DNA of 64,000 nt. It comes from Escherichia coli (GTDB taxonomy: Bacteria > Pseudomonadota > Gammaproteobacteria > Enterobacterales > Enterobacteriaceae). This document shows positions 9,962 to 55,635 of this stretch, piece by piece. Location of the stretch: assembly GCF_029227855.1 (NCBI RefSeq), contig NZ_CP074356.1. The stretch is one strand, 5' to 3'. The notes beneath the pieces were generated by a model. That model was not told the origin of the DNA. It made no database searches and was given only the letters and a program-made list of their open reading frames with translations. How positions within the stretch are numbered: the stretch's first letter is position 1; every line of letters begins with the position of its first letter. A program made the translations under genes and the position numbers.

Positions 9962-10582
9962 TTATAAGAAAGGCTTCACATCACCTACGCCTTCACGCAC
10001 CACGACCGGCGTATCATCGGTAAGATCAATAACCGTTGTTGGTTTCTGTCCGAGATAGCCGCCGTGGATAATCAAATCCACCTGTTTTTCCAGACGGTCT
10101 TTAATTTCTTCGGGATCGGATTCGGTAAATTCGCTGCCTGGCAGCATTAGCGAAGTGGAAAGCATCGGTTCGCCCAATGCTTCAAGCAACGCCTGCGCAA
10201 TCGGGTTAGAAGGCACACGCATACCGATGGTTTTGCGTTTTTCCTGCAACAGACGGCGTGGCACCTCCTTCGTCCCTTTCAGGATGAAGGTGTAGTTGCC
10301 CGGCGTGTTGTTTTTCATCAAACGAAACGCAACGTTATCCACGAATGAATAGGTCGAGAGCTCAGAAAGATCGCGACACATCAGGGTAAAGTTGTGACCG
10401 TCCGGCAGCTGGCGAATTCGACAAATACGCTCCATGGCGTTTTTATCTTCAATTTTACAGCCGAGCGCATAGCCGGAATCGGTTGGATAAACAATCACCC
10501 CGCCTTTACGCACGATCTCCACCGCCTGGTTGATCAGTCGTTGCTGCGGGTTATCAGGATGAATATAAAAAAACTGGCTCAT
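9962..10582 (-). CDS. yciO: L-threonylcarbamoyladenylate synthase-like protein YciO (YrdC/Sua5 fold)
   Basis: Start refined to internal Met (MSQFFYIHPDNPQQRL...) giving 206 aa; the ORF-track 218 aa version would overlap yciV by 40 bp. Confidence 0.85.
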   Translation of the reverse strand: MSQFFYIHPDNPQQRLINQAVEIVRKGGVIVYPTDSGYALGCKIEDKNAMERICRIRQLPDGHNFTLMCRDLSELSTYSFVDNVAFRLMKNNTPGNYTFILKGTKEVPRRLLQEKRKTIGMRVPSNPIAQALLEALGEPMLSTSLMLPGSEFTESDPEEIKDRLEKQVDLIIHGGYLGQKPTTVIDLTDDTPVVVREGVGDVKPFL

Positions 10583-20021: not shown

Positions 20022-20660
20022 TTAAAAACGATATCCTGCTGAGAACATAAACACCCACGGATCGAGGCGTACGCTATCGTGTTGCTGTGCACCGCCCAGC
20101 TTATAATTGGCGGTGGTATCAATATCCATGTACCACACTGACATGTTAACCAACCAGTCACGGTTAATCAGATAATCAACCCCCACCTGCCCGGCAGCTC
20201 CCCAGGAATCTTTCAGACTGAGATCGGAAAGCCCCGCCTCTTTGCCATGATCGTTAAATCCATTATCAAAGAAGGTGGTGTAGTTAATACCTGCCCCAAC
20301 GTAAGGACGGAATTTGCTGCTGGCATCACCAAAATACCACTGCGCCATCAGTGTTGGCGGCAGATGATGAACGGTTGCAATATCGCCGGTCGCCCGGGTG
20401 CCGATTTTATGGCGGAACGGCGTCGCTGCCAGCAATTCCACACCAATGTTATCGGTCGCCATATAAGTAAACGTCAGGCCCAGTTGCGTGTTATTGGTCA
20501 CGCTGAATCCACCCAGACTTCCTAACGTACCACCAGCACCTTCTGTTGGACGTACGGTTGCAGAACCTGCACGCATAAAAAATTCGCCTGCTTCATGCGC
20601 AAAGGCACTGCCAGAGAGAAGAGTTGTTACTGCCAAAGCCGCCACTGTTAACTTTTTCAT
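20022..20660 (-). CDS. ompW: outer membrane protein W
   Basis: 212 aa; signal peptide MKKLTVAALAVTTLLSGSAFA; beta-barrel ending in Phe (..AGYRF). Confidence 0.92.
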   Translation of the reverse strand: MKKLTVAALAVTTLLSGSAFAHEAGEFFMRAGSATVRPTEGAGGTLGSLGGFSVTNNTQLGLTFTYMATDNIGVELLAATPFRHKIGTRATGDIATVHHLPPTLMAQWYFGDASSKFRPYVGAGINYTTFFDNGFNDHGKEAGLSDLSLKDSWGAAGQVGVDYLINRDWLVNMSVWYMDIDTTANYKLGGAQQHDSVRLDPWVFMFSAGYRF

Positions 20661-20808
20661 ATCCGCTCCGTCGTTATGGTTATAAAAACGTGACGAATAT
20701 ACCTACATTGGAGTAACAAATGATCCTACATAGATCACATTACATATGATAATTCACCCTTTATTGATCTGGATTAATTTAGAAGTTGCATTGAGAATCC
20801 TGGTTAAC

Positions 20809-20822
20809 GTGATTTAAATCAA
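20809..20822. promoter_or_regulatory. candidate FNR/CRP-type site upstream of ompW
   Basis: GTGATttaaATCAA matches TTGAT-N4-ATCAA at 9 of 10 positions; about 150 bp upstream of the ompW start; ompW is known to be FNR-regulated. Confidence 0.4.
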
Positions 20823-21016
20823 TTTTTAAATATTTTCGCTACGCAAATATTAACTCGTTCGCCACTTGCCGCGGTTTGCCCACGCCTGAAGGCCAGCAAT
20901 TACCTCCGCTTTACAAAGATATGCTTTTCCATACAAGACCTGATGCTGCCACCCGAGGCTTAACCAGGGTACAATTGCCCGCTAATTAACACCTGCATAA
21001 AACTCAAGGAGAGTGC

Positions 21017-21760
21017 ATGTCTATCACGGCGCAGTCCGTATACCGTGACACCGGAAATTTCTTCCGTAATCAATTTATGACCATTCTGTTGGTATCGTTG
21101 CTATGTGCGTTTATCACAGTGGTGTTAGGGCATGTTTTCTCACCCAGTGATGCACAGCTTGCGCAGCTCAATGACGGCGTGCCCGTTAGCGGCAGTAGTG
21201 GGTTGTTCGACCTGGTTCAGAATATGTCACCGGAACAGCAACAAATTTTGCTGCAGGCTTCAGCGGCGTCCACTTTTTCAGGATTAATCGGTAACGCCAT
21301 TCTCGCCGGAGGCGTAATATTAATTATCCAGCTGGTGTCTGCGGGTCAGAGAGTCAGTGCGCTGCGAGGTATTGGTGCCTGTGCGCCGATATTGCCAAAG
21401 TTATTTATTCTGATTTTTCTGACTACCCTTTTAGTACAGATTGGCATCATGCTGGTGGTCGTTCCGGGAATTATCATGGCTATTTTACTGGCCCTGGCAC
21501 CGGTGATGTTGGTACAGGACAAAATGGGCGTTTTTGCCTCGATGCGTAGCAGTATGCGGCTGACTTGGGCGAATATGCGTCTGGTGGCACCCGCAGTACT
21601 GAGCTGGTTGCTGGCAAAAACACTGTTGCTGCTTTTTGCCTCTTCTTTTGCCGCATTAACCCCGGAAATTGGTGCCGTACTGGCGAACACCTTGAGCAAC
21701 CTGATTTCAGCCGTACTGCTCATCTATCTGTTCCGCCTGTATATGTTGATTCGCCAATAA
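21017..21760 (+). CDS. yciC: UPF0259 inner membrane protein YciC
   Basis: 247 aa, multiple TM helices. Confidence 0.85.
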
Positions 21761-34884: not shown

Positions 34885-35360
34885 GGTTAGCTCCGAAGCA
34901 AAAGCCGGATAATGTTAGCCATAAATAAGGTTGAAAAGACGCGCTGACAATACGCCTTTTGACAGCATTTTTCACCTCCTAACTACTTAAAATTGCTATC
35001 ATTCGTTATTGTTATCTGGTTGTGCAAAACATGCTAATGTAGCCACCAAATCATACTACAATTTATTAACTGTTAGCTATAATGGCGAAAAGCGATGCTG
35101 AAAGGTGTCAGCTTTGCAAAAATTTGATTTGGATCACGTAATCAGTACCCAGAAGTGAGTAATCTTGCTTACGCCACCTGGAAGTGACGCATTAGAGATA
35201 ATAACTCTAATGTTTAAACTCTTTTAGTAAATCACAGTGAGTGTGAGCGCGAGTAAGCTTTTGATTTTCATCGGTTAAGCAAATCATCACCGCACTGACT
35301 ATACTCTCGTATTCGAGCAGATGATTTACTAAAAAAGTTTAACATTATCAGGAGAGCATT

Positions 35361-45281: not shown

Positions 45282-46124
45282 ATGCATTCACTCCAACGTA
45301 AAGTTCTGCGTACTATTTGTCCGGACCAAAAAGGTCTGATCGCACGTATTACCAATATTTGCTACAAGCACGAGTTAAATATCGTACAGAACAATGAATT
45401 TGTTGATCACCGTACCGGGCGCTTTTTTATGCGCACGGAACTGGAAGGGATTTTTAATGATTCCACCCTGCTGGCGGATCTCGATAGCGCATTGCCAGAA
45501 GGCTCCGTGCGTGAGCTGAATCCTGCCGGTCGTCGCCGGATAGTGATTCTGGTCACTAAAGAAGCGCATTGCCTTGGCGATTTGTTGATGAAAGCCAATT
45601 ACGGCGGCCTGGATGTCGAAATCGCGGCAGTTATTGGTAACCACGATACTTTACGTTCTCTGGTTGAGCGTTTTGATATTCCGTTTGAGCTGGTAAGTCA
45701 TGAAGGATTAAGCCGCAACGAGCACGATCAAAAGATGGCGGATGCCATTGATGCTTATCAGCCTGACTACGTGGTGCTGGCGAAGTATATGCGGGTATTA
45801 ACGCCAGAATTTGTGGCACGCTTCCCGAATAAGATCATCAATATTCACCATTCATTCCTGCCAGCGTTTATCGGCGCACGTCCTTATCACCAGGCCTATG
45901 AACGTGGCGTGAAGATTATTGGCGCAACCGCTCACTATGTGAATGACAATCTGGACGAAGGTCCAATCATCATGCAGGACGTTATTCATGTCGATCATAC
46001 CTACACAGCTGAAGATATGATGCGCGCAGGTCGTGACGTCGAGAAAAACGTCTTAAGTCGCGCACTCTACAAAGTACTGGCGCAGCGCGTCTTTGTTTAC
46101 GGTAATCGGACGATTATTCTTTAA
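45282..46124 (+). CDS. purU: formyltetrahydrofolate deformylase
   Basis: 280 aa; N-terminal ACT domain and formyltransferase core. Confidence 0.92.
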   Translation: MHSLQRKVLRTICPDQKGLIARITNICYKHELNIVQNNEFVDHRTGRFFMRTELEGIFNDSTLLADLDSALPEGSVRELNPAGRRRIVILVTKEAHCLGDLLMKANYGGLDVEIAAVIGNHDTLRSLVERFDIPFELVSHEGLSRNEHDQKMADAIDAYQPDYVVLAKYMRVLTPEFVARFPNKIINIHHSFLPAFIGARPYHQAYERGVKIIGATAHYVNDNLDEGPIIMQDVIHVDHTYTAEDMMRAGRDVEKNVLSRALYKVLAQRVFVYGNRTIIL

Positions 46125-53603: not shown

Positions 53604-53617
53604 TTGATAACGATCAA
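53604..53617. promoter_or_regulatory. FNR site of narG promoter
   Basis: TTGATaacgATCAA, perfect match to TTGAT-N4-ATCAA, about 90-105 bp upstream of the narG ATG; TACCCCT NarL-type heptamer at 53655-53661. Confidence 0.8.
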
Positions 53618-55356: not shown

Positions 55357-55370
55357 TTGATGTAAATCAA
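55357..55370. promoter_or_regulatory. FNR site of narK promoter
   Basis: TTGATgtaaATCAA, perfect consensus, about 60-70 bp upstream of the narK start; TACCCAT heptamer at 55409-55415. Confidence 0.8.
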
Positions 55371-55635
55371 ACGATAAGATAACTTTATCTATCATTGATA
55401 TTTATCATTACCCATAGTGAGTACAGTGATTTCATAAAAATTATGAGATTTTTCACGGTGCTGTAAAATCCCTACCCTTACCGATGTAAAGCGACTAACC
55501 ACGCGGCAAATAAGGAGTAACTCTTTCCGGGTATGGGTATACTTCAGCCAATAGCCGAGAATACTGCCATTCCAGAATGTATCGCCACATTCATTAAGGT
55601 TATTGCTCATTTAAAGCCTGAAGGAAGAGGTTTAC

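Follow-up and report, generated by a model that had tools for sequence, protein, structure and literature searches.

Two FNR boxes between ompW and yciC in a non-K-12 Escherichia coli strain very probably represent the mapped FNR operators of the ompW promoter

The spacer between the divergent genes ompW and yciC carries two short palindromes resembling binding sites for the oxygen-responsive regulator FNR, which raises the question of whether they are genuine FNR operators and which of the two flanking genes they serve. The window, the whole stretch of 64,000 nucleotides of E. coli chromosomal DNA that was analysed, places the two genes as follows.

20022-20660, minus strand: ompW coding sequence, 212 aa, the regulated gene (ORF list; PGAP annotation of identical E. 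coli DNA)
21017-21760, plus strand: yciC coding sequence, 247 aa (ORF list; PGAP annotation of identical E. coli DNA)

The spacer separating them measures 356 bp and, together with both gene ends, is found by megablast in 5,422 of the 5,426 complete E. coli genomes. Many of these matches are 100% identical and annotated as ompW and yciC, so the gene names in the earlier note, which the ORF list and the annotation of identical DNA bear out as well, were right. The best megablast matches are other E. coli strains, the strain of the window not being K-12. An Rfam scan of 20300-21400 returned no RNA family at E <= 1, and the spacer is therefore not explained by a known sRNA or riboswitch, while an inverted-repeat scan of the spacer yielded only short AT-rich palindromes, none of which rivals the FNR reading. 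A promoter and terminator consensus scan gave a single plus-strand sigma-70-like match at 20946-20975, no more than shuffled sequences give, and left the weak, activator-dependent ompW promoter itself uncalled.

The two palindromes read as follows, with their centres counted from the ompW transcription start.

20809-20822, minus strand: upstream (distal) FNR box, GTGATTTAAATCAA on the plus strand and TTGATTTAAATCAC on the ompW strand, centre -126.5, repressing or damping (exact match to published site; 9/10 consensus; ChIP-seq peak)
20764-20777, minus strand: proximal FNR box, core TTGATCTGGATTAA on the plus strand and TTAATCCAGATCAA on the ompW strand, centre -81.5, activating (exact match to published site; 9/10 consensus)

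The earlier note had placed an FNR site at 20809-20822, where it is indeed found, and a possible second one at about 20761, where the longer string TTATTGATCTGGATTAA (20761-20777) encloses the 14-bp core of the proximal box at 20764-20777. Both cores form the FNR-type inverted repeat TTGAT-N4-ATCAA, each departing from TTGATNNNNATCAA by a single mismatch and thus matching at 9/10 positions. Read by eye, neither contains the CRP pattern TGTGA-N6-TCACA, and the spacing between the half-sites is the N4 of FNR; of the label "FNR/CRP-like" given to them at first, the FNR part holds and the CRP part does not apply to these boxes, the CRP site being a separate element at 20724-20739. The box centres lie 45 bp apart. 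Measured from the distal centre, 20815.5, the start codon of ompW is 155.5 bp away and that of yciC 201.5 bp, so that an initial estimate of about 150-190 bp to either start codon describes this box roughly, but not the proximal one, whose centre at 20770.5 is 110.5 bp from the ompW ATG and 246.5 bp from that of yciC.

Matches of this quality exceed chance expectation in the window. Allowing at most one mismatch, the consensus occurs at 8 sites in the whole 64 kb, compared with 2.96 +/- 1.56 in dinucleotide-preserving shuffles (n = 100), and 0/100 shuffles reached 8. At the shuffle rate, 0.016 sites are expected in the 356-bp spacer, which gives a probability of ~1.3e-4 for two or more. At least five of the eight matches belong to published FNR targets (ompW twice, narG once, narK twice). 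Specifically, perfect boxes, TTGATAACGATCAA and TTGATGTAAATCAA, occupy 53604-53617 in the narG promoter region and 55357-55370 in the narK promoter region, with a 9/10 box at 55395-55408 beside the latter; narG and narK are listed FNR targets and serve as positive controls for the scan. A further 9/10 candidate, TTGATTTGGATCAC, lies at 35124-35137 between ychE and adhE, 230 bp ahead of the adhE start codon (gene identities by NCBIfam); adhE is absent from the main text of the FNR ChIP-seq paper of Myers et al. 2013 (PMC3688515). The remaining 9/10 matches, 10308-10321 and 45748-45761, are internal to long ORFs and probably arose by chance.

The boxes can be set directly against a mapped promoter. 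Xiao et al. 2016 dissected the ompW promoter and defined FNR sites at -126.5 and -81.5, and located the transcription start by 5' RLM-RACE at a G 29 bp upstream of the ATG (PMC4886647). Transferred to the window, the remaining promoter elements are the following.

20689, minus strand: ompW transcription start, G, 29 nt upstream of the ATG (5' RLM-RACE, PMC4886647; base and distance checked in the window)
20696-20701, minus strand: ompW -10 hexamer TATATT, -12 to -7 (position read from the promoter sequence; invariant in 15/15 aligned loci)
20700-20715, minus strand: NarL 7-2-7 site TACTCCAATGTAGGTA, centre -18.5, nitrate repression (exact match to published site, PMC4886647)
20724-20739, minus strand: CRP site TGTGATCTATGTAGGA, centre -42.5, activating without glucose (exact match to published site, PMC4886647)

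Each published FNR string is found once in the window, on the minus strand, and counting from 20689 puts their centres at exactly -126.5 and -81.5. The comparison with mapped ompW promoter elements that had been proposed as a check thus gives exact agreement in string and position for both FNR sites, the CRP site and the NarL site. The published experiments were carried out in MG1655, and all four site sequences are identical in the non-K-12 strain of the window; relative to K-12 PompW, the 14-mers, their 45-bp spacing, the distances to start and ATG, and the CRP and NarL sites are the same, with no difference in the sites. Through this identity of string and position, the two candidates of the earlier note correspond to the published PompW FNR operators, and we regard it as very probable that in E. 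coli these boxes are the pair of operators through which FNR controls ompW. A 2026 footprinting study used this same promoter as a software benchmark and recovered both FNR peaks, and RegulonDB lists the sites (PMC13058942).

Neither box occupies a classical FNR position, near -61.5 for class I or -41.5 for class II, the centres being at -81.5 and -126.5, and the authors themselves term these positions unconventional (PMC4886647). The earlier note had named, as grounds for rejecting the sites, a mapped ompW start that their positions would not fit. The distances are unconventional, yet mutants of the sites are deficient in binding and change transcription; since both boxes bind FNR and both alter ompW transcription, the FNR reading is not refuted by their positions.

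The published evidence for binding and regulation covers both boxes. Under anaerobic conditions PompW-lacZ activity, ompW mRNA and OmpW-FLAG all rise ~3-fold, and the rise is lost in an fnr deletion (PMC4886647), so that the link to anaerobic ompW induction drawn in the earlier note holds at the reporter, transcript and protein levels. In EMSA, FNR-D154A forms two shifted complexes with the promoter, of which each single-site mutant loses one and the double mutant both (PMC4886647). Mutation of the -81.5 site cuts lacZ activity ~3-fold, leaving it as low as in the fnr deletion, whereas the -126.5 site acts in the opposite direction, lacZ activity rising ~2-fold upon its mutation and ~3-fold upon its deletion (PMC4886647). 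When both sites are changed, the result equals that of the -81.5 mutant alone, and the effect of the distal site therefore depends on the proximal one (PMC4886647). In addition, H-NS silences PompW in air and is counteracted by FNR, and ArcA adds an FNR-dependent repression (PMC4886647). The -126.5 site was also detected in the genome-wide ChIP-seq study of Myers et al. 2013, which assigned its peak to ompW and placed ompW among the operons directly repressed by FNR (PMC3688515). This classification conflicts with the net activation seen in the reporters (PMC4886647). This conflict is reconciled by the two-site model of the promoter's authors, in which the -81.5 site is filled first and the -126.5 site second as active FNR builds up, with maximal expression at the aerobic-to-anaerobic transition (PMC4886647).

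Applied to the window, the sequence of events would be as follows. As oxygen falls, dimeric [4Fe-4S]-FNR would first occupy the proximal box at -81.5 (20764-20777), raising ompW transcription ~3-fold and relieving H-NS silencing. With further accumulation of active FNR, a second dimer would bind the distal box at -126.5 (20809-20822) and, together with ArcA, damp ompW transcription again. Because damping from -126.5 requires the -81.5 site, ompW expression would peak under microaerobic conditions. CRP at -42.5 provides a carbon-source input and NarL at -18.5 a nitrate input to the same promoter. FNR at -81.5 may behave like a class I upstream activator, as its position near the -82.5 face, from which activators of the CRP/FNR family can contact alpha-CTD, would suggest, and FNR at -81.5 combined with CRP at -42.5 may resemble a tandem, class III-like arrangement.

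Several FNR-controlled promoters are comparable. Judged by mechanism, the yfiD (grcA) promoter is the nearest analogue of ompW: as summarized in two later papers, FNR at -40.5 activates yfiD and FNR at -93.5 down-regulates it, with microaerobic expression (Green 1998, Marshall 2001; via PMC3688515, PMC3445967). On these secondary accounts, both promoters use two FNR dimers, the proximal activating and the distal suppressing that activation, and both are described as microaerobically tuned. They differ, again according to those summaries, in that the activating site of yfiD is of class II at -40.5, whereas ompW is activated from -81.5 and has CRP where a class II activator would sit, and in that the damping site is 45 bp upstream of the activating site in ompW versus 53 bp in yfiD. 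The cydAB promoter shares with ompW the silencing by H-NS in air, the interplay of FNR and ArcA, a low-oxygen maximum and non-classical FNR positions; unlike ompW, where FNR both activates and represses and ArcA represses, cydAB is only repressed by FNR and is activated by ArcA. The narK and narG promoters, recognized by the same consensus in the same scan, are likewise FNR-activated, but their boxes match at 10/10 positions and stand at the classical -41.5, where FNR acts as a simple class II activator, joined at narG by NarL as co-activator.

Conservation was assessed in one-genome-per-species contigs searched with a degenerate-codon DNA pattern for the OmpW peptide HEAGEFFMRAG, which retrieved 15 loci, 14 of them with usable upstream DNA; a Kosakonia locus, lacking upstream DNA, was left out. 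The loci include Salmonella enterica subsp. arizonae and diarizonae, Enterobacter, Cedecea, Atlantibacter, Phytobacter, Buttiauxella, Dryocola, Huaxiibacter, Lelliottia and E69, a divergent genome labelled E. coli, and several of the 14 come from the same genus (three, for example, from Atlantibacter). An FNR-like box matching at 8-9/10 positions stands at the position homologous to -81.5 in all of them (14/14 other Enterobacteriaceae loci), and in the MAFFT alignment of the 14 loci the ten half-site bases of this box are 96% identical to the window, compared with 44% for the 31 bp between the boxes. Identity across the 14 loci at the -126.5 box is 84% in the left half, TTGAT, and 44% in the right half, and a box of at least 8/10 occurs at this position only in E69, S. 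arizonae, Atlantibacter and Phytobacter. Conservation at a fixed position is thus complete for the proximal box only, and the full -126.5 palindrome is well kept in Escherichia alone, mostly its left half being retained elsewhere; the repressing role may therefore be lineage-specific. E69 differs from the window by 18 substitutions over the region -170 to -30, of which 0 fall within the 28 bp of the two boxes. Within ~390 bp upstream of ompW in the relatives, no FNR box of at least 8/10 was found besides those at the two homologous positions. The promoter's authors name the -81.5 FNR site and the CRP site as the conserved ones (PMC4886647), and the alignment footprint agrees both with this remark and with the 2026 footprinting (PMC4886647, PMC13058942).

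The alignment also brings out other elements of the promoter. Beneath the CRP site at -42.5 lies a palindrome conserved across genera, TGTGATC-N7-GATCAY (20720-20739, minus strand), centred near -40. Its near-perfect half-sites stand 5 bp farther apart than those of the CRP consensus TGTGA-N6-TCACA, too far for both to be used by one CRP dimer, and each arm contains a GATC (Dam) site, the two being 11 bp apart. Just downstream of the -81.5 box, at -70 to -55, Salmonella has the ArcA site ABS-1. The 13 loci from outside Escherichia have almost the same sequence, AATGTTAAATTA, in the homologous block, and E. coli reads AAGGGTGAATTA there (20744-20759, minus strand), a difference in sequence which suggests a shift or a weakening of the ArcA site in Escherichia. 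Farther upstream, the inverted repeat AATATTTTCG-cta-CGCAAATATT at 20829-20851 is homologous to MS-C, a 'marsox' box for SoxS in Salmonella, and the left half of the FNR box at -126.5 is overlapped by the 3' end of MS-C.

The question of which gene the boxes serve, which the earlier note held could not be decided, is answered by published work: the mutant reporters (PMC4886647) and the ChIP-seq assignment (PMC3688515) give them to ompW. An assignment of the boxes, or at least of the distal one, to the divergent side, with FNR control directed toward yciC-yciB-yciA, is very unlikely. The spacer is common to both genes, the distal box is nearer to yciC than the proximal one, and the yciC promoter is probably inside the spacer, given that its sole plus-strand sigma-70-like match lies at 20946-20975; counted from this candidate promoter, however, the box centres would be ~165 and ~210 bp upstream of the start. 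To our knowledge, no activating FNR position that far upstream is documented. The ChIP-seq peak, moreover, is assigned to ompW, and yciC is absent from the main text of that study (PMC3688515).

The history of the spacer likewise argues against yciC. In its yciC-proximal third, at 20900-20989 (plus strand), PGAP annotates a partial pseudogene made up of the ~30 C-terminal codons of a YkgJ-family cysteine-cluster gene. Salmonella enterica subsp. diarizonae and Enterobacter sp. R1 carry a complete copy of 134-136 aa at this place, with ompW on one side and yciC on the other (L004 4072-4476; L002 1585-1995). E. coli has lost most of this ancestral divergent neighbour of ompW, and, with a remnant here and an intact gene in Salmonella and Enterobacter, the present juxtaposition of ompW and yciC is a by-product of that deletion. 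The spacing of the boxes to yciC is accordingly a recent accident, whereas their distance is fixed to ompW across genera and not to the neighbour.

It is improbable in the extreme that the distal box chiefly belongs to a SoxS/MarA (marsox) or CRP element and is not an FNR operator. The Salmonella box MS-C (TTTGCATAGCGTGAATATGTCAAAATTGAT) does end in AAAATTGAT, which is the left half of the distal box and the part of it conserved across genera, and the GTGAT half of the box resembles a CRP half-site. The E. coli 14-mer is nevertheless a 9/10 FNR palindrome whose mutation removes one FNR-DNA complex and de-represses ompW, CRP binds at -42.5 and no longer does so once that site is mutated (PMC4886647), and an overlap with a marsox box is compatible with use by FNR. 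Equally negligible is the reading of both matches as chance AT-rich near-palindromes without function: the spacer is AT-rich, a 9/10 match is expected ~3 times per 64 kb and the matches at 10308 and 45748 inside long ORFs are candidate examples of such chance, but two matches in 356 bp (P ~1.3e-4), a box position conserved across genera and the ChIP-seq peak (PMC3688515) stand against it, and the mutational EMSA and reporter data refute it (PMC4886647).

Beyond the assignment of the boxes as FNR operators of ompW, additional functions at these elements are conceivable, though unlikely: the distal box might have a second, undescribed role, either in divergent transcription (of the ykgJ-family gene ancestrally and now of yciCBA by way of the gene remnant) or through competition with SoxS/MarA, and, separately, the palindrome under the CRP site might bind something other than, or more than, one CRP dimer.

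Published experiments already describe the element completely, and the finding contains nothing new. The ompW promoter is among the best annotated in E. coli, with input from FNR (twice), CRP, NarL, ArcA, Fur and H-NS, and the value of the present analysis is one of confirmation only, validated FNR operators having been picked from raw sequence and the gene they serve resolved, with no question made newly testable. Should SoxS/MarA competition at the distal box prove true, control by oxygen and by oxidative stress would be joined at one element.
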